Positions 5,666-61,970 are shown, numbered from the stretch's first letter. The stretch: 64,000 bases of DNA from Candidatus Solincola daggyaiensis (GCA_015711825.1 JACVJD010000001.1:333-64332); one strand, 5' to 3'. Numbers and translations: made by a program. Notes: generated from the letters alone by a model not told the origin.

Positions 5666-8600
5666 ATGAGCGTGACCGCTTTGCCGCCATCGGAGCGGGA
5701 TAAAAAACGGAGGCTTTGGCCTCTGGCCATCATCGCGTTGGTGCTGGCGGCTTTCTTCCACTCCATGCTCACCCTGTCGAGGGTTCCATGGATATCGGAT
5801 ATAAAGTCATATTATTACCCTGCATGGCGCTACCTCGCCCACGCCTTCCGCTCCGGGGGGCCCTCGCTGTGGTGTTCCGGGATCTATTGCGGCTTTCCCC
5901 TTTTCGCCGACAGCGAGATGGGGCTGTTCTATCCCGTGAACCTTCTCTTCTTCCAGCTCCCGGCCACGGCGGGGTTCAACTACTGCATCATCCTGCATTA
6001 TCTTCTGGGAGGCGTTTTTACCTACATGTACTGCCGGCGCCTGCGGTTGGGCCGCTCCGCCTCCCTTTTCGCCGCCCTGCCGTTTACGCTGGGGGGGTTT
6101 TTTCTGGCACACATGGTGCACCCCAACGCCGTCGCCACCGCGGCTTGGATGCCCCTGTTCCTTTACTGCCTGGAGAGAGCTCTTTCGGAGGGAAAGCCGT
6201 CTTTCCACCTCGCGGCAGGGGGGGTGCTCGGCCTGCAGTGCCTTTCCGGCTTCTTGATGATACCGCTCATGCAGGCGTTGCTGGCTTTTTTCTATCTCCT
6301 TTCCCACTCCTTTGACGAGCAAGGCGACAGGCGCAGGTTTTTGCTCATCAACCTCGCCTGGCTCATCCTGGCGCTGGGGCTGGGGGTTTGCCTCGGCATG
6401 GTGCAGAACCTGCCCAGTTACCACCTGGTCCAGAACTCCTACCGCGCCGGCGGGCTGTCGGAAAAAGTGGCCGGTATAGGCAGCATGCCGCCCGCTCAAC
6501 TTCTGGGCATCGTGCTTCCAAGGCTTTTCGGGAGAGGCCTGGCGCAGGGGGGTTACCTGGGGGCTTGGACCTTCGAGGAGACCTACGCATATATGGGCGT
6601 ACTCCCTATCCTTTTCGCCTCCGCGGCGCTGCTGCGGCCGCGCCGCAGGCACGCCGCCTTCTTCTTCTGGATGGGGACGGTCTCGCTTTTGCTCAGCCTG
6701 GGCAGGTACGGCCTGCTCTGGTCGGCATTGCGCCACCTCCCCGGCTTCAACGTGCTCAAGGGCTCAAGCCGCTTCATCCTCACCTTCAACCTCTCCCTGG
6801 CCGTGCTGGGAGGGATGGGGTTCGAGCGCTGGCGCAGCGGAGAGTTCCCCTCCCGCATGGCGAGGTCCCTTTCCCGCGCCTGGTTGAGGGTCGCCGCCGC
6901 CGCAGCCGCGCTGGCCGCCATCCCGGTGCTCCTGTACCGCTTCGACGTCCTGGGGTTCAGGGACCTGGCGGCGGCCGCGGCCAAGCCCTTCCTGGCGGGG
7001 ATAAAGCTTCCGACGCGCCGTGTCCTCGACGGCCTGGTCTCGTTCTTCACCGCCCCGCGCCTGGACCTCCTGCTCCCTCCGGTGATGCTGGCCCTCTTCC
7101 TGCTCCTCATACGCGCCGACGGCGAGGGGGAATACGGACCCAGCCGCCTCAAGGTCTTCATCGCCGTGGGCCTTGCCGTGGTGGACGTTTTCGCCTTCGG
7201 GAACTTCGTGCTCAAGCCGGTTCCCAGGGAACGGGCGGACTTCAAGCCGCAGGTGATCGGCTACCTGAAGGAGAACGCGGGCGACGCCAGGGTGGCCCTG
7301 GCCAAAGAGCCCGGCGTGGATCGCGGCGAGTTCCCCCTCTGCTCCAACCAGCTGCTTCCCTACGGCCTCGAGGACGCCTTCGGGTTCTCCACCATCCCGC
7401 CCGCGCGCCTCGACCGCTTCCTGGCCCTGGTGAACGACCGCCCGGAGGCCTCCGCCTTCGAGCTGCTCGGCGTGGGTTTGCTCTACTCCAACCTCTCCAG
7501 GGTGCAAGGCACCACCTACGATCTGTCCGACCCCTATCCCATTCCCGGCGGCCTGGGCGCGGTGAGCTACGCCTTTCCCTCCCGTACCTCGGGGAGGGAA
7601 CTGCGCCTGCTGGTGGACGGCAGCATCCTGGAGCCGAGCGCCTCCGGACGGCTTTGCTTCAAGTTGAACTCCATCATCAACGGACGGGTGGTGAAGCACC
7701 CCGTCCTTTTCCTGCACAAGGACAGCGGCCCCGAGGAATACTTCCTCGCGGTTATCGACGCGGAGCAGACCGCCTCCTTCGAGCGCGTGCGCTTCCGCTC
7801 ACCCGGCCACGGGGAGGGGCGTGAAGCCTTGGAGATAAGGGTTCCGCTTCCCAGTTTGGGAGAGGCGGACGAGCTCATCCTCACCACCCTCTGCGACCCG
7901 GCCCTCGAGGGAACCCGAATCGCGGCCGTCACCGCCATCGACAAGGACGGGAGGCGCGTTCCCCTCACCGCCTGGCCTTCCGTGTATTGCGACGGCAAGA
8001 ACGCGGTGTACGAACTGCCAAACCGCCTCACCGAGGCATATGCGGCATGGGAGGTCTCCTGGAGCGGAAGCTGGGGGGAAGCGGTGGACCGCGCCTTCCG
8101 CGAGGACCTGGGCATGGGCGAGGTCGTCCTGGTGGAAAGCGAGATCGGCCCCGAAACGCGCAAGGCACTGACCGCCCTCTCCCCTCCCGAAAGGGAGCCC
8201 TCCATCGAGGTGGCGGAGAGCGGAGGCGACGGTATGGCCCTGCGCGTCAGGGGTGACGGCGATTTCATCCTGGTGGTCTCGCTCGATTTCATGCCCGGCT
8301 GGAGGGCCACGGTGGACGGCGAGGAGGCGCCCCTGTTTTCCGCCAACGGCTTCCTTACCGCCCTGCACATGAAGCGAGGAGAACATGTGGTGCTGCTCTC
8401 CTACCGTCCCCCCGGCTTAGCAAGCGGTGCGGCGGTGTCCTCGCTTTCCCTGGCGCTCCTCGTTTTTCTCTTCATGTTATCGAGAAGGAAGGAAGGCCGG
8501 GCGGCGGAGCCGACGAGCCTGGAGACTCCCGTGGCGAGAACAGCCGGCGGGAGCATAAGCGCCTTCTTCCCCTGCTACAACGACTCCGCCACCCTCAAGG

Positions 8601-37923: not shown

Positions 37924-38054
37924 CTTAAAAAGGGTTCGGGTCTCGTTCCCGCATACAACCACTCGCCGGATGATGCACGATGCGACACGCCCTGCGGCGC
38001 GCATTCTCTTCAAACCATTCCGCACCGGAGCAAGGAAAAGGCAAGGCCCGACCC

Positions 38055-38726
<672 letters not shown>

Positions 38727-51000: not shown

Positions 51001-51077
51001 TGGTAGCGGTGAGAGGACTTGAACCTCTGACCTCGCGGGTATGAACCGCGCGCTCTTACCAGCTGAGCTACACCGCC
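51001..51077 (-). tRNA. tRNA-Met (anticodon CAT; could alternatively be the lysidine-modified Ile2 type)
   Basis: 77 nt, cloverleaf by eye: acceptor GGCGGTG/CACCGCT, anticodon arm CGCGG-TTCATAC-CCGCG, T-arm AGAGG-TTCAAGT-CCTCT, encoded CCA. Confidence 0.8.
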
Positions 51078-51093
51078 ACGCTTTTTGAATCGA

Positions 51094-51169
51094 TGGAGCC
51101 CGCTAGCAGACTCGAACTGCTGACCCCATCCTTACCATGGATGTGCTCTACCAACTGAGCTAAGCGGGC
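51094..51169 (-). tRNA. tRNA-Thr (anticodon GGT)
   Basis: 76 nt: acceptor GCCCGCT/AGCGGGC, D-loop AGCTCAGTTGGTAGAGC, anticodon arm CATCC-ATGGTAA-GGATG, T-arm AGCAG-TTCGAGT-CTGCT, CCA. Confidence 0.85.
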
Positions 51170-56900: not shown

Positions 56901-57782
56901 GTGAAGGCGATGCGAAAAGTACGGGCTCTCATTTCACGGGAGAGACAGGCGGAGCTTGCCCTCATCGCCGTTACCGTGGTATGGGGGCTCACCTTCTCCC
57001 TGGTAAAGCGGAGCCTGGAGGAGGTCTCGCCTTTCGTCTTCATGGCTTATCGCTTCGCGTTGGCCTTCCTGGTGATGCTGGCCGTATCCGTGCGCAGGTT
57101 GAGAGACCTGGACCGGGGAACGCTCGCGGCCGGGCTTCTGCTCGGGATTTTTCTCTACGGCGCCTACTCCCTGCAGACCATAGGACTTAAATACACCTCG
57201 GCCGGTAACGCGGGCTTTATCACCGGGCTTTTCGTGGTATTCGTTCCCATACTATCCGTCGTTTTGCTGCGTAAACGCCCGGGGGTACGTTCCATCGTAT
57301 CCGTGTCCCTGGCCACCGTCGGGCTTGCCCTCCTATCTCTGCAGCCTGGACAGGGCATCAACCTCGGGGACGCCTTGGTCCTGGGATGCGCCTTCACCTA
57401 CTCCCTGCACATCATCTGCATGGACCGCTTCGTACAGCGCCACGATTTGGTGCTACTCACCCTGGTGCAGATGGGGGTGGTGGCCATCCTTCACACCGTG
57501 TCAGGGCTGTTTTTCGAGGGCTTCACCTTCCCCACCGCTTCGTTCGTGTGGATGACCATCGCCGTATGCGGCATCCTCGCCTCCGCCGTGGCTTTCTTCG
57601 TGCAGGCCTGGGCCCAGAGGGCGCTCTCACCGGTGCGCACGTCGGTGGTTTTGATCATGGAGCCGGTGTTCTCCGTCCTCTTCGGTATCCTCCTGCTTGC
57701 AGAGAGGCTATCCTGGCGCGGGTGGTTGGGCTGCGCGATCATGCTCGCCGCCATGCTCATCACGGAGATAAGACCGGAATAG
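56901..57782 (+). CDS. EamA/DMT-superfamily transporter
   Basis: 10 TM, two EamA repeats. Confidence 0.8.
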   Translation: MKAMRKVRALISRERQAELALIAVTVVWGLTFSLVKRSLEEVSPFVFMAYRFALAFLVMLAVSVRRLRDLDRGTLAAGLLLGIFLYGAYSLQTIGLKYTSAGNAGFITGLFVVFVPILSVVLLRKRPGVRSIVSVSLATVGLALLSLQPGQGINLGDALVLGCAFTYSLHIICMDRFVQRHDLVLLTLVQMGVVAILHTVSGLFFEGFTFPTASFVWMTIAVCGILASAVAFFVQAWAQRALSPVRTSVVLIMEPVFSVLFGILLLAERLSWRGWLGCAIMLAAMLITEIRPE

Positions 57783-57908
57783 GGGTCAGGTCTTGCATCT
57801 AGCCTGCCATATTATGGTATCATATTATATTGTCGCTGGCAGGAGGCCACGTCTATCTTAAAATAATGTTGAGATACCGCGGTATGCAAAATACAAGACC
57901 TGACCCCA
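57749..57908. repeat. direct repeat copy 1: 34 nt of eamA 3' end + ~125-bp AT-rich MITE-like element with terminal inverted repeats GTCAGGTCTTGCAT / ATGCAA..CAAGACCTGAC
   Basis: aligns with 60711-60870; ends conserved, centre diverged; internal 12-bp palindrome ATACCGCGGTAT and TGGTATCAT extended -10-like box. Confidence 0.8.
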
Positions 57909-58667
57909 TCAGAGGATTTTGGAGAAGAAGTCGATGGCGCGGGGGCTTTGCGGGTTGGTAAATATTGCCTCTGGTTGGCCCTCCTCCACGATGTTGCCGT
58001 CGTCCATGAAGATGAGGCGGTCCCCTACCTCTTTGGCGAAGCCCATCTCATGGGTCACCACCATCATGGTCATGCCCTCGCGGGCCAGGTCCTTCATCAC
58101 GTCCAGGACCTCCTTGACCAGCTCGGGGTCGAGGGCCGAGGTCACCTCGTCGAAGAGCATAAGGTCGGGATCCATGGCCAAGGCACGCGCGATGGCCACC
58201 CTCTGCTGCTGCCCGCCGGAGAGGTGGGCCGGGTAGGCCGAGGCCTTTTCCTTCAGCCCTACCCTCTCCAGCAGGCGGAGGGCCTTATCCTCCGCCTCCG
58301 CAGCGTCCATCTTCCTGACCTTAATGGGGGCGAGGGTGACGTTGCGCAGGGTGGTGAGGTGGGGAAAGAGGTTGAAGCTCTGGAAGACGATCCCCACTCT
58401 CTGCCGCATGGCGTTTATGTCCACCTTGTGGTCGGTGATGTCCACGCCCTCGATATATATATGACCGCTGGTGGCATGCTCGAGCCCGTTCACGCAGCGC
58501 AGCATGGTGCTCTTGCCGGAACCGCTGGGTCCCACGATCACCAGCACCTCCGAGGGCCTCACCTTGAGGTTGACCCCCTTGAGCACCTCATGGAAACCGA
58601 ACCGCTTGTGGAGATCGACGATCTCCACCATGTATTCTGCGCTCAAGCGCCCCTCCCGGGATCCCAT
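57909..58667 (-). CDS. polar amino acid ABC transporter ATP-binding protein (GlnQ/HisP-like)
   Basis: Walker [25 protein letters not shown], Walker [13 protein letters not shown]; true start may be the internal ATG at 58631. Confidence 0.9.
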
Positions 58668-58830
58668 CCTCGTCCTGCCGATACCGTTTTCTCAAGACCA
58701 TATTAACCCATATCGCGCCCCGGGCACGAAAGTCGTCCCGCGCTCGGACGCGCGCAAGTTATGCCTTTACTGAGAGCCCTCCCTCATCTTGCGGCCAAAC
58801 CCCCGGTCCAGGGCACACGCCTCCCCAGCC

Positions 58831-59610
58831 TCAATCCTTCATGGAGAGTCGGGTGGTCATGTACTGTACCAGCCTCATCAAGGGAAGGGTGATGATGAGG
58901 TAGCATAGGGCCGCGCCCATGAGAGGGGTAACGCTGGCGTATTTCCCCATCATCTCCCTGCCGCGGAAAAAGACCTCCGCCAGCCCGATGGTGGCTACCA
59001 GGGCGGTGTCCTTGAGCAACGCTATGAACTCGTTGGAGAGCGGCGGGATGACGTTTCTTATCGCCTGGGGCAGGATGATGTAGCGCATAGCCTTCAGGTA
59101 TCCCATCCCAAGGGATCTTGCCGCCTCCATCTGCCCCTTGTGTATGGACTCTATGCCGGCGCGGAATATCTCCGCCTCATACGCCGCGTAGCAGATGGTG
59201 AGGGCGATGACCCCCGCAACGAACTGGCTTAGGTTGAGCCCCATGTAAGCAAGGCCGAAATAGACGATGAAGATCTGCAGCAGAAGCGGCATCCCCCTTA
59301 TGACGTCGATATACACTGCGGCAACGAAACGGAACGGCTTGACCCTGGATATCCTCACCAGGGCCACCATTAGGCCGGCGGCCAGTATGCAGATCTCCGA
59401 GATCACGGCGAGTCTTATGGTCACCCAGAGGCCTCTCGCCACATACGGCATGGTCTTCTTGAAGATCTGCCAGTTAAAGAACTCGTCCACGAACTTCTTG
59501 CCGGCCTCGAACCTGGTGAAGAAAACCGCCAGGAAGACGACCAGCGCCACAGCCGCCAAGATGCCGACCGTCCATAATATGACCTTTAGCCTTCCGTTTA
59601 TCCCCGACAC
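58831..59610 (-). CDS. polar amino acid ABC transporter permease (HisMQ family)
   Basis: EAARSLGMGYLKAMRYIILPQA EAA-loop motif. Confidence 0.85.
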   Translation of the reverse strand: MSGINGRLKVILWTVGILAAVALVVFLAVFFTRFEAGKKFVDEFFNWQIFKKTMPYVARGLWVTIRLAVISEICILAAGLMVALVRISRVKPFRFVAAVYIDVIRGMPLLLQIFIVYFGLAYMGLNLSQFVAGVIALTICYAAYEAEIFRAGIESIHKGQMEAARSLGMGYLKAMRYIILPQAIRNVIPPLSNEFIALLKDTALVATIGLAEVFFRGREMMGKYASVTPLMGAALCYLIITLPLMRLVQYMTTRLSMKD

Positions 59611-59696
59611 CTCCTTTCAAGGCAAAAGGCCCGCACGCCTTCGCGCGCGGGCCACAAAACTGGGCATCAAGACATGGTGGGGTTCGGCGCTCTTTT

Positions 59697-60509
59697 CTAT
59701 TTCTCCCCGAACCACTTCTCGAAGATCTTGTCGTAGCTGCCGTCTTTTTTCATCTCCGCCAGCGCTTTATCGATGGCCTTCTTGAGCTGGTCGTTGCCCT
59801 TGCGGATGCCGATGCCGTACTGCTCGTCGGTCTTGATGGTGGCCACCACCTCGGTCTGGCCGCGCATCTTGCTCATGTAGGCGTTGACAGGGTAGTCGTT
59901 GAGGATGGCGTCGATTCTCCCCAGCTCCAGCTCCTGGAAGGCGAGGATGATGGTATCGTACTTGCGGATCTCCTTGATGCCCGGGATCTTCTCCGCGGTG
60001 AACTGGCCGGTGGTATCTACCTGGACCCCCACCACCTTGCCCGCGAGGTCGGCCTCGCCCTTGATCTCCGTATTGCCCTTCTTTACTGCGATGGACTGGT
60101 TGGAGTCGATGTAGGGGTCGCTGAAGTCGATCTCCTCCAGCCGCTCGTCGGTGATGGTCATGGCGGACATGATGATGTCGTACTTGTCGGCCTTCAACCC
60201 CGGGATGATGCCGTCCCATGCGGTGCTTATGATCTCGAGTTCCAGGCCGAGCCGCTTGGCGAGCTCATTGGCGATATCGACATCGAACCCTTCCGGCTTG
60301 CCGTCATCCCCAATGGACTCGAAGGGCGGGTAGGTGGTGTCGCTGCCCATGAGCAGCTTGCCTTTCTGAATGGTGGTGACGGTAGCCTCCTTCTTCTCCT
60401 CCCCTTTCGTCTCCTCTTTCTTCTCGCCGCAACCCGCCGCCATGAGGCCGACTACCAGCGCGGTTGCAAGAGCGAGTACCAACAGGGCGATAAATCCTTT
60501 CCTGCGCAT
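59697..60509 (-). CDS. amino acid ABC transporter substrate-binding lipoprotein (SBP family 3)
   Basis: lipobox LMAAGCGEKKE; ...MSAMTITDERLEEIDFSDPY... Confidence 0.85.
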   Translation of the reverse strand: MRRKGFIALLVLALATALVVGLMAAGCGEKKEETKGEEKKEATVTTIQKGKLLMGSDTTYPPFESIGDDGKPEGFDVDIANELAKRLGLELEIISTAWDGIIPGLKADKYDIIMSAMTITDERLEEIDFSDPYIDSNQSIAVKKGNTEIKGEADLAGKVVGVQVDTTGQFTAEKIPGIKEIRKYDTIILAFQELELGRIDAILNDYPVNAYMSKMRGQTEVVATIKTDEQYGIGIRKGNDQLKKAIDKALAEMKKDGSYDKIFEKWFGEK

Positions 60510-60710
60510 CTTCCCTCCTTATCCCGTTCGGCCGGCAACGCTGAAATTATATAGTCAAAGCGTAATTCACACAAATCGCCGCGGGATAAATGAATGCCCG
60601 TAAGCCCTTGAGCAAGCCGCTTGGCTTGTCTTTGCTTCTTCTCCAAGGAGTCGGGGGCAAGAGGATGACGGCGAGTGGATAGCGCTCGGTTAAGCGGGCG
60701 GCAAAGTCAC

Positions 60711-60870
60711 CGCCATGCTCATCACCGAGATAAGACCGGAATAGGAGTCAGGTCTTGCATCTATCCTTCCATATTATGGTATCATACTATATTGCTGCTG
60801 TTAGAAGGCCATGTCTGGCGAAAGGATTTGCGGAGATACCGCGGTATGCAAAATTCAAGACCTGACCCCC
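60711..60870. repeat. direct repeat copy 2 (duplicated eamA 3' end fragment + MITE-like element)
   Basis: aligns with 57749-57908; its right end supplies the last codons and stop of the 60855-61970 gene. Confidence 0.8.
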
Positions 60871-61970
60871 ACCACGCCTACCGTGCGCAGCGGGGGCCGT
60901 AGAGCGACCACGGCGTTCGCCGCTGCCTCGTCGATATCGCTCACGCATACCTCCACCGCCAGCCCCATGGAGGCGGCCATGAGGGACATCTGCGAAAGGG
61001 CGATGGGGAGGTCTATCATCCAGAAGGGCTTCTCGAGCATCTCGTAGAGGTAGGAGCGGTCCGGCTCGGCGGCCCCCACCACGGCGGCCCTCCAATCTCC
61101 GGCGGCGCCGCAGGCAAGAGCCAGTTCCCGCAAAGTCCCCTCCCGCCTGACACCGATGAAATGCCATTGCTGGGTGTTCCCGGCGCTGGGCGCGATGCGC
61201 GCGGCCTCGAAACAGGCATCCAGGGCCAGGTCAAGGGGAACGCCGGGGTCGCTTTGGCGCTTTTTCCCCATCTCTCTCAGCAATCCCGCCACGTCCTGGG
61301 TCTCGGAAGCGGAGAAAGGCTCCCTCGCCAGCTCCCGCACGCTGTAAGGGTTGTCCATGGTCTCGAGATAGGCGATGGCCTCCAGCGGCTTGCGTTTCCG
61401 GGATATCTGCAGGTAGAGCAGGTGGTCCATGTCCGCCGCCCTGACCCGCGGCTTGGGTTTGCCGAAGGGGATCACCGCCGCGACGTAGGTCTCCCTGCCG
61501 AACCCCAACGTCTCCCCCACCTCGCGCTGGTTCAGCCCTCCCACCCAGCAAGTGCCCAGGCCCGCCTCGGTCAGCCAGAGCACCACGTCCTCGGCCGCCA
61601 TAGCAACAAGGGGCAGCTCGCGCGGACGGTCGCCCTTGGCGTCGGCGCGTGGGACCGCCAGCACCAGAAACCCCGCCACGGGGGAGCGGTTCAGCCAGAG
61701 GTTGATCTTTCCCTGTGTCCCTTTATGTATCCTTTTCTTTATCCTCTCCACCCGTCCCGTGTCTGAGACCACCGTGATACCGCCCTCCGCTGCACCCCGG
61801 GTGGAGAGCGCCAGGCTCACCACCTCCCCGAGGGATGCAAAGAACGCCTGGTCGTATTCGCCCGGCAGGTACTTGCGATGGGAGCGGCGGGCGTAGAGGA
61901 CCTCCCACAGTTTCCACGGCGTTTCGGAATAGGAAAGATAGTCCCGGGTCGCGGTTTTGGTCTGCTCCAT
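60855..61970 (-). CDS. tandem nitroreductase-fold protein (SagB/ThcOx-type dehydrogenase-like)
   Basis: two nitroreductase-like halves; second carries APSAGNTQQWHFIGV; first starts ...YARRSHRKYLPGE. Confidence 0.6.
   Translation of the reverse strand: MEQTKTATRDYLSYSETPWKLWEVLYARRSHRKYLPGEYDQAFFASLGEVVSLALSTRGAAEGGITVVSDTGRVERIKKRIHKGTQGKINLWLNRSPVAGFLVLAVPRADAKGDRPRELPLVAMAAEDVVLWLTEAGLGTCWVGGLNQREVGETLGFGRETYVAAVIPFGKPKPRVRAADMDHLLYLQISRKRKPLEAIAYLETMDNPYSVRELAREPFSASETQDVAGLLREMGKKRQSDPGVPLDLALDACFEAARIAPSAGNTQQWHFIGVRREGTLRELALACGAAGDWRAAVVGAAEPDRSYLYEMLEKPFWMIDLPIALSQMSLMAASMGLAVEVCVSDIDEAAANAVVALRPPLRTVGVVGVRS

Follow-up and report, generated by a model that had tools for sequence, protein, structure and literature searches.

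A 64,000-nt stretch of Candidatus Solincola daggyaiensis DNA (GCA_015711825.1, JACVJD010000001.1:333-64332; hereafter the window) carries a three-gene amino-acid ABC transporter operon bracketed by two direct repeats, each of which contains the 3' end of the neighboring gene eamA. This arrangement raises the question of whether the operon is a mobile segment delimited by the repeats, or whether it is the repeats that moved. The comparisons described below indicate that the operon occupies its ancestral position, and that the newcomers of this lineage are two small elements, A and B, which are copies of one 126-bp palindromic repeat. The explanation we favor overall, with a probability of roughly 0.7, is that the element belongs to the terminal inverted repeat (TIR) sequences associated with the TIRYT transposases, that A was in place before B, and that B arose together with a piece of the sequence flanking A. 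The features of the locus are given here, where L122, L124, L127 and L128 are syntenic contigs of related Actinomycetota metagenome-assembled genomes (MAGs) that were reached through nitroreductase and EamA protein homologues.

56910-57782, plus strand: eamA, encoding a DMT-family transporter (Pfam EamA, E = 2.7e-40).
57749-57782, plus strand: native last 34 nt of eamA, the source of the copied flank (same coding sequence in element-free relatives).
57782-57907, plus strand: element A, a 126-bp palindromic TIR repeat with left end GGGGTCAGGTCTTG and right "hairpin end" GAGATACCGCGGTATGCAAAATACAAGACCTGACCCC (covariance model R1, 110.8 bits).
57909-58667, minus strand: ABC transporter ATPase gene, glnQ-like (Pfam ABC_tran; 92.9% amino acid identity to L128).
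58831-59610, minus strand: ABC transporter permease gene (Pfam BPD_transp_1; 91.9% amino acid identity to L128).
59697-60509, minus strand: family-3 solute-binding protein (SBP) gene, the first gene of the operon (Pfam SBP_bac_3; amino acid identity 97% to L127 over 124 residues, 93% to L124).
60510-60706, minus strand: upstream spacer of the operon (from alignments with L127, L124 and L122).
60710-60743, plus strand: non-functional duplicate of the 34-nt eamA 3' end, joined to element B (no eamA gene precedes it, and the orthologous L127 site is without it).
60744-60869, plus strand: element B, a second 126-bp TIR repeat, oriented like A (R1, 98.5 bits; left TIR mutated to GGAG).
60855-61970, minus strand: nitroreductase-family gene (Pfam Nitroreductase/TM1586_NiRdase).
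37929-38058, minus strand: third, decayed copy of the element, 60% GC (R1, 20.8 bits; E about 1e-3 on a rough calibration).

The structure of the repeats agreed with the original prediction, which had been made from the window alone. Positions 57745-57907 and 60707-60869 align over 163 nt without a gap and with 24 mismatches (85% identity), and each copy consists of about 34 nt of eamA 3' end followed by the 126-bp palindromic element. In copy A, nucleotides 57749-57782 encode the end of EamA and its TAG stop (AAMLITEIRPE-stop); in copy B, nucleotides 60710-60743 are equal at 33 of 34 positions, and the frame would give TAMLITEIRPE-stop. The AT-rich element with inverted termini that had been predicted is likewise present, with 45-46% GC in A and B against 63% in the window, and with 14-nt TIRs, GGGGTCAGGTCTTG...CAAGACCTGACCCC, that are perfect in A and have one mismatch (GGAG) in B. 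The sequence GGGGTCAG opens three of the four arms, the exception being the left arm of B, which reads GGAGTCAG. Both elements fold with a long terminal stem (z-scores of -5.9/-6.5 for A and -2.1/-4.7 for B). Between the two copies lie, as had been stated, exactly three minus-strand genes (ATPase, permease and family-3 SBP), together with about 200 nt of upstream spacer. The source is a MAG, and repeats can mislead assemblers; however, both repeat junctions are also found on two separate contigs (L001 and L002) of a second deposited assembly, GCA_015711815.1, which does not necessarily represent independent reads, and there each repeat is spanned with unique flanks on both sides. Moreover, 24 differences between A and B are not expected of an erroneous collapse or duplication. 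An assembly artifact is extremely improbable, and the direct repeat and the duplicated gene end are both confirmed as genuine.

The gene order in the relatives bears directly on the proposal that the transporter operon was captured. No element is present in L127, the closest relative, where a 306-nt spacer separates the nitroreductase gene from the SBP gene; its nitroreductase is 84% and its SBP 97% identical to the window proteins, the latter over 124 alignable residues. In L128 (GCA_013178005.1), eamA is convergent on the ATPase-permease-SBP operon, and the order in the outgroup L158 is eamA-PfkB-ATPase-permease-SBP-nitroreductase. The operon proteins are 89-97% identical to their syntenic orthologues, and a neighbor-joining tree gave (L158,(L124,(L122,(L127,ours)))). 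None of the sites orthologous to that of element B in L127, L158, L122 and L124 contains an element; the end motif is absent from the loci of the syntenic relatives, and an unfiltered covariance-model run on these loci did not detect a degenerate copy either. Since relatives with neither element keep the eamA/transporter/nitroreductase order, synteny shows that the operon sits in its ancestral place, the two small elements being the newcomers of this lineage.

The capture model treats the operon as a captured or mobile unit with the repeats as its borders, whether in a composite transposon, a cassette or an island whose att sites were duplicated; it draws on the direct repeats that enclose exactly three genes and on the gene end held by one of them, as in the attL/attR of an island. 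It was not borne out, because L127, L128 and L158 have the operon in synteny without elements and both of its flanking junctions are ancestral in element-free relatives, and we consider it highly unlikely. The bracketed segment contains no transposase, integrase or recombinase gene, as a composite transposon or island might, and there is no target duplication outside the repeat pair. The ends of the segment, GGGGTCAGG and CCTGACCCC, are not the RYYYAAC/GTTRRRY core sites of integron cassettes, and no integrase gene was found in it. The relatives keep the operon and are without only the 126-bp elements; no empty site that joins the outer flanks was found among them. The same prediction had preferred duplication, recombination or capture to simple transposition, and this holds insofar as a copy that carries a flank is not the product of clean transposition, but it fails for capture given the ancestral operon. 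It had also described the arrangement as primed for excision or amplification. Recombination between A and B could in principle delete or amplify the operon, and to that extent the idea stands, if weakly; against it are the 85% identity, the longest run without a mismatch of only 22 nt, and the lack of any variant form. Neither deleted nor amplified forms of the operon were found, although only one other assembly has these exact proteins, and exact-protein look-ups returned no further strains that carry them.

The nitroreductase and SBP genes are separated by seven others in L122 (7426-15454) and L124 (11461-19485); these are absent from the window, L127 and L158, and encode FDH-like, NuoF-like and DUF5981 proteins, a GAF histidine kinase, MTHFR and two response regulators. 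This arrangement had suggested that element B marks an 8.6-kb deletion, an idea that was rejected when L127 and L158 were seen to have nitroreductase and SBP adjacent with no element. By the tree and the L127 arrangement, the seven-gene indel is judged to be unrelated to element B.

Comparison with the relatives further indicated that both elements rewrote the ends of the genes beside them. EamA orthologues share ...ITE(I/A)(R/K)PE followed by 0-15 variable residues, and the window EamA stops directly after ...ITEIRPE. Nucleotide homology to the relatives L156 and L157 ends exactly at 57782, and therefore element A cut off the tail of EamA, leaving the junction GAA TAG/GGG. On the other side, the ATPase ends in ...FFSKILSHL-stop in L128 and L158 and in ...FFSKIL-stop in the window; the last three codons are lost, and the new TGA stop is 1 nt from element A. 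The spacer of about 280 nt between eamA and the ATPase gene of L128 is gone in the window, where element A occupies the entire interval between the eamA and glnQ stop codons. These alignments show that element A replaced the convergent eamA/glnQ spacer along with both native stop codons. Nitroreductase orthologues have 370 residues and end in ...GMR-stop, whereas the window protein has 371 and ends in ...GVRS-stop, the last codons and stop being derived from the right TIR of element B (GGG GTC AGG TCT TGA). Relative to L127, the target lost at B comprises the last two codons and stop of the nitroreductase gene and about 120 nt of spacer. The same comparison shows that element B now supplies the final codons and stop of the nitroreductase gene. 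The third copy has a junction of the type found at eamA (TAG/GGGG), its end CGACCCC abutting the TAG stop of an open reading frame (ORF) at 38055-38705 on the minus strand. The eamA/ATPase spacer of L128 (7952-8233) has a feature of its own, a 141-nt tandem duplication that spans a GC-rich hairpin together with ~38 nt from the 3' end of the ATPase gene, with no TIR element.

The right ("hairpin") end of B is precise, and its insertion replaced target sequence. The left side is different: the SBP-proximal ~165 nt of the operon spacer are ancestral, with a conserved TATATAATTTCAGCGTTGCCGGCCGAA block, and its distal end meets the copied eamA fragment. Because the 34 nt adjoining B are the native eamA sequence of element-free relatives, the comparison shows B to be a copy of the A locus that comprises A and 34 nt of its left flank. 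Copies of the element within other single genomes have interiors that are not alignable, while those of A and B can be aligned; therefore, A and B look like full-length sister copies. Their differences are clustered, with 17 mismatches among 43 central positions (57830-57872 vs 60792-60834) and 7 among the other 120 (permutation p < 5e-5), which corresponds to 91-97% identity in the flank, the left part and the right end and to 60% in the center. Each divergent center has a small hairpin of its own, and one stem pair that involves the left and central parts is compensated between the copies (CCTGCC/GGCAGG in A, CCTTCC/AGAAGG in B). The pattern suggests clustered, palindrome-templated changes, although this is speculation.

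The pattern GTCAGGTCTTG-N(84-112)-CAAGACCTGAC was scanned against one genome per species to determine how widely such elements occur. More than 119 loci were present among the matches listed, about 2 being expected by chance, and they span at least a dozen phylum-level groups as assigned by record title: Actinomycetota, Acidobacteriota, Thermodesulfobacteriota, Alpha-, Beta- and Gammaproteobacteria, Bacillota, Spirochaetes, Elusimicrobia, Patescibacteria, Planctomycetota, Aminicenantes, Methylomirabilota and others. Among the matching genomes are some from cultured isolates and some assembled from long reads. The original prediction had allowed for an element absent elsewhere in the genome; instead, the window contains the third, decayed copy and the family reaches into many phyla, several genomes being multi-copy. 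The interiors vary between genomes and the common part is YGGGGTCAGGTCTTG; eight Actinomycetota copies share with the window elements the ATACCnnnGTAT hairpin beside one end. A metagenome scan found further relatives of the element, none with the eamA piece. The viral scan gave one match in 2.9 million viral contigs, and an enterobacterial copy had no BLAST match in the plasmid collection. Using the motif sequence as a query in the literature turned up nothing but primers and the like, all unrelated; the motif also resembles the signal recognition particle RNA over 9 nt, probably by chance.

The family does not duplicate its target. Among 117 copies no direct repeat of 2-9 nt exceeded the shuffled control at any offset, and none is present at A or B. 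Flank profiles revealed no fixed tetra- or pentanucleotide insertion site, and they gave no support to the idea of a TA target, which the TAG/GGGG junctions had suggested. Many copies lie at gene ends: an inward ORF of at least 120 codons stops between -15 and +25 nt of the boundary at 28% of 214 element ends, compared with 5% of control positions, and 16 such ORFs share with the window nitroreductase both its TIR-encoded TGA and the frame in which it is read. The right junction of B is thus typical of the family, and only its left boundary is displaced. No recurrent neighbor gene family emerged when 1681 neighboring ORFs were clustered, which yielded common families only, and the distant TIR pairs of L089, L114, L034 and L154 enclose no autonomous partner but only housekeeping or toxin-antitoxin genes.

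Several loci exhibit irregular ends or arrays. Nested and tandem "stuttered" ends are common; just outside many ends, 2-4 tandem copies of an 8-13-nt unit made up of the last element bases and flank are found (e.g. TGACCCCCGGG, three times), as at L162 (2200-2400), in the right flanks of L137, L141, L142, L134, L098 and L035, and beside a Pseudoalteromonas TIRYT gene. L041 (Chitinolyticbacter albus, 6449-6954) has four head-to-tail 124-nt units, each of which opens with the left arm GGGTCAGGTCTTGCCTTTTGC, closed by a single right arm; this array is a tandem amplification of one arm with the interior. Contigs L131-L155 (metagenome MTKY01, ERZ1026xxx contigs) contain a high-copy repeat of about 196 nt, composed of a shared extension of ~110 nt and an 85-nt hairpin, GGGGTCACGTCTTG...ATACCGCGGTATGCAAAAAACAAGACCTGACCCC. 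Copies of the 85-nt hairpin alone are also present, and several extensions are preceded by another CAAGACCTGAC end. In one metagenome the 85-nt and 196-nt versions are both present in many copies; with the extension lying opposite the hairpin, they would be compatible with a boundary that is flexible on that side, although the repeat is a complex one. At L154 (4832-8244), two hairpin copies in the same orientation bracket guaA and an IMP-dehydrogenase-like gene (identified by eye from translations), which shows that repeats bracketing genes are a routine by-product of elements that fill intergenic spacers.

The ends of the element led to a candidate enzyme class. TIRtrons are genes for RAYT-like HUH tyrosine transposases (TIRYTs) flanked by long inverted repeats that share GGGGWSAS, and TIR repeat families occur in dimers or clusters (Di Nocera et al. 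2013, PMC3733652). TIRYTs belong to Y1 subclass 2.1 and have a C-terminal helix-turn-helix (HTH) domain (Quentin et al. 2018, PMC6006769). GGGGTCAG matches the TIR motif GGGG[AT][CG]A[CG] given in both papers (PMC3733652, PMC6006769). When a published TIRYT sequence was used as a tblastn query against plasmids, 20 records were returned and eight loci examined, and in 6 of the 8 the Y1_Tnp gene is bounded by GGGG(T/A)CAG inverted repeats. The arms in Sporomusa termitida pSPTER are GGGGTCAGGCCTCA and TAAGGCCTGACCCC, the better of which equals the window TIR at 12 of 14 positions. No HUH or Y motif was picked up by a regular-expression search, but tblastn of TIRYTs against the motif loci then found three Y1_Tnp genes with a C-terminal HTH, each adjoined by the exact 14-mer, in three unrelated genomes (L028, L116 and L072). 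In L028, a Syntrophobacteria MAG, the gene lies in a unit of ~1 kb with perfect 26-nt TIRs, the 5' region of which is a 130-nt hairpin like the window element; in L116 the motif is about 65 nt upstream of the Y1_Tnp start codon, and it has the same position in L072 (Vibrio sp.). Two context look-ups of TIRYT homologues revealed a different type of inverted repeat, GCTTTAGGGTCA. Based on these matches, the 126-bp element is very probably a non-autonomous TIR repeat of the TIRtron/TIRYT class, whose transposases are related to RAYTs within the IS200/IS605 superfamily, with A preceding B, and its cognate enzyme is presumably encoded elsewhere in the genome.

The likeness to the TIR repeats of TIRtrons extends to GGGG[AT][CG]A[CG] ends, inverted dimers, nested sets, clusters and a location downstream of ORFs; the window differs in that it has no TIRYT gene, in the ATACCnnnGTAT hairpin beside one end, and in the 34-nt coding flank carried by one copy, for which the excerpts of PMC3733652 and PMC6006769 contain no counterpart. 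REP and REPIN sequences, which depend on RAYTs, are likewise short non-autonomous hairpin repeats found at gene 3' ends without target duplication, with a trans-acting, single-copy HUH enzyme of the same superfamily presumed; however, the window arms are not self-complementary units of 20-40 bp and lack the GTAG/CGTC tag that belongs to the definition of REPs (PMC3733652), and the hairpin needs both distant arms. Correia, ERIC and RUP-type miniature inverted-repeat elements resemble the window elements as palindromic intergenic repeats of ~100-150 bp that are co-transcribed with their neighbors, but they are linked to DDE transposases and have target duplications (TA for Correia), and no duplication is seen here. 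The IS200/IS605 family and PATEs are moved as single strands by a Y1 HUH enzyme in a "peel and paste" process without target duplication. The enzyme class and the missing duplication are points in common; those elements, however, have a different subterminal hairpin at each end, no TIRs and a fixed tetra- or pentanucleotide target, and no such fixed site was found here. In IS91/ISCR elements and Helitrons, one end is precise and the other can be overrun, with adjacent host DNA carried along. The likeness is one of behavior, proposed for copy B only, and implies no membership, as those are large autonomous elements with Y2-type enzymes and specific target tetranucleotides. What is new is an Actinomycetota subfamily of already known TIRYT-associated TIR repeats, with an unusual carry-over of flank.

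How B acquired its flank can be pictured in more than one way. According to the TIRYT model, the family would be moved in trans as single-stranded DNA, with no target duplication, by an enzyme encoded outside the window. Processing for B would start at the precisely bounded hairpin end, the counterpart of the arm that precedes the transposase gene in L116, L072 and Sporomusa, and would then overrun the other end by 34 nt into eamA, a one-ended read-through error as in other HUH-driven elements, and the product would be pasted 2.96 kb away at another gene 3' end. Read-through by a TIRYT is the origin of the flank that we favor, at slightly less than even odds, and the stronger proposition that B is a snapshot of one-ended mobilization, with one end defined, the other overrun and host coding sequence carried, is put forward only tentatively. 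Several observations weigh against this model. Mobilization of TIR repeats by TIRYTs is not known from experiment and is only deduced in the relevant papers (PMC3733652, PMC6006769), and tblastn found no Y1_Tnp gene in the 64-kb window. A and B both replace target sequence rather than simply interrupt it, which is unlike a clean HUH "paste" and fits repair-type events. Among ~390 element ends, no dispersed pair other than A/B has a flank in common on one side, and read-through is thus uncommon. Finally, the uneven divergence of A and B fits none of the models, and a plain recent copy does not explain it.

The main rival involves no transposase: the SBP/nitroreductase spacer, after a break or the stalling of a fork there, would have been patched from the A locus, through synthesis primed by microhomology or through template switching. 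Such a patch would copy the element and 34 nt beyond it, with target lost (~130 nt) and none duplicated; the right junction has 3-6 nt of G-run microhomology (GTGGTGGG vs GATGGGG), the template is only 2.96 kb away in the same orientation and forms strong hairpins, the uniqueness of the flank-sharing pair would be natural, and the 141-nt tandem duplication of L128, which is element-free, also takes in a gene end. However, the patch ends exactly at the element terminus, in a family-typical junction with the TGA frame of 16 other genomes, which would be a coincidence for random repair, and we regard this origin as possible but doubtful. The chimeric identity pattern (flank, left part and right end vs center) and the compensated stem pair would instead be expected if an independent element, B0, already lay at the nitroreductase 3' end and its left part was later replaced from A, by ectopic conversion or synthesis-dependent strand annealing that continued into the eamA flank, the break then being closed by end joining; two independent insertions 3 kb apart are plausible in a family that favors gene 3' ends. 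Yet A and B can still be aligned in the center, at 60-63%, their right ends have 1 mismatch in 35 positions, and more events are needed than in the other models, which makes conversion of a resident B0 unlikely.

A further reading does without mobility and holds that the unit spread by selection because it is kept as an RNA or DNA signal, either a bidirectional terminator or an mRNA 3'-end stabilizer at both ends of the operon. The stable terminal stem, the convergent gene ends and the enrichment of the family at stop codons agree with this, and REP-type elements located downstream of ORFs are thought to act as RNA elements (PMC3733652). A promoter and terminator scan, however, gave nothing convincing in the elements, with no canonical terminator and no promoter; Rfam returned no match above the gathering score at the elements of the window or at 35 related loci, and in an E-value-mode scan of 57600-61000 the sole hit, below threshold and due to chance, was to a eukaryotic miRNA model inside the ATPase gene. 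The stem is invariant, which makes covariation uninformative, and the 34-nt eamA piece has no evident role. Furthermore, this reading names an effect and leaves the origin of the copy unexplained, and as an account of the arrangement it is improbable, even though the element may plausibly affect mRNA 3' ends.

The locus provides a case in which direct repeats that bracket an operon need not make it mobile, the repeats here being the newcomers. It extends a poorly studied class, with an exact 14-nt end motif that occurs across at least a dozen phylum-level groups and is tied directly to Y1_Tnp genes, and the habit of the family emerges as insertion on gene stop codons without target duplication, with C-termini rewritten. 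The copy with its carried flank is a rare clue to the mechanism of mobilization, whether read-through or repair. If the one-ended reading is true, these elements routinely overwrite gene 3' ends and give them new stops, as for three genes here and in 16 other genomes. We know of no demonstrated activity for Y1 subclass 2.1; B would then offer the first mechanistic handle on it, and REPIN-like elements could shuffle gene termini.

Two minor features of the window remain. Two adjacent tRNA genes at 51004-51169 on the minus strand are its sole Rfam matches. Just upstream of the SBP start, at 60510-60560, a block reading TATATAATTTCA(G/C/A)CGTTGCCGGCCGAA...GGGA(T/C)AAGGAGGGAAGATG is strongly conserved in L122, L124 and L127, the spacers being otherwise diverged, and it may be a promoter or leader element.

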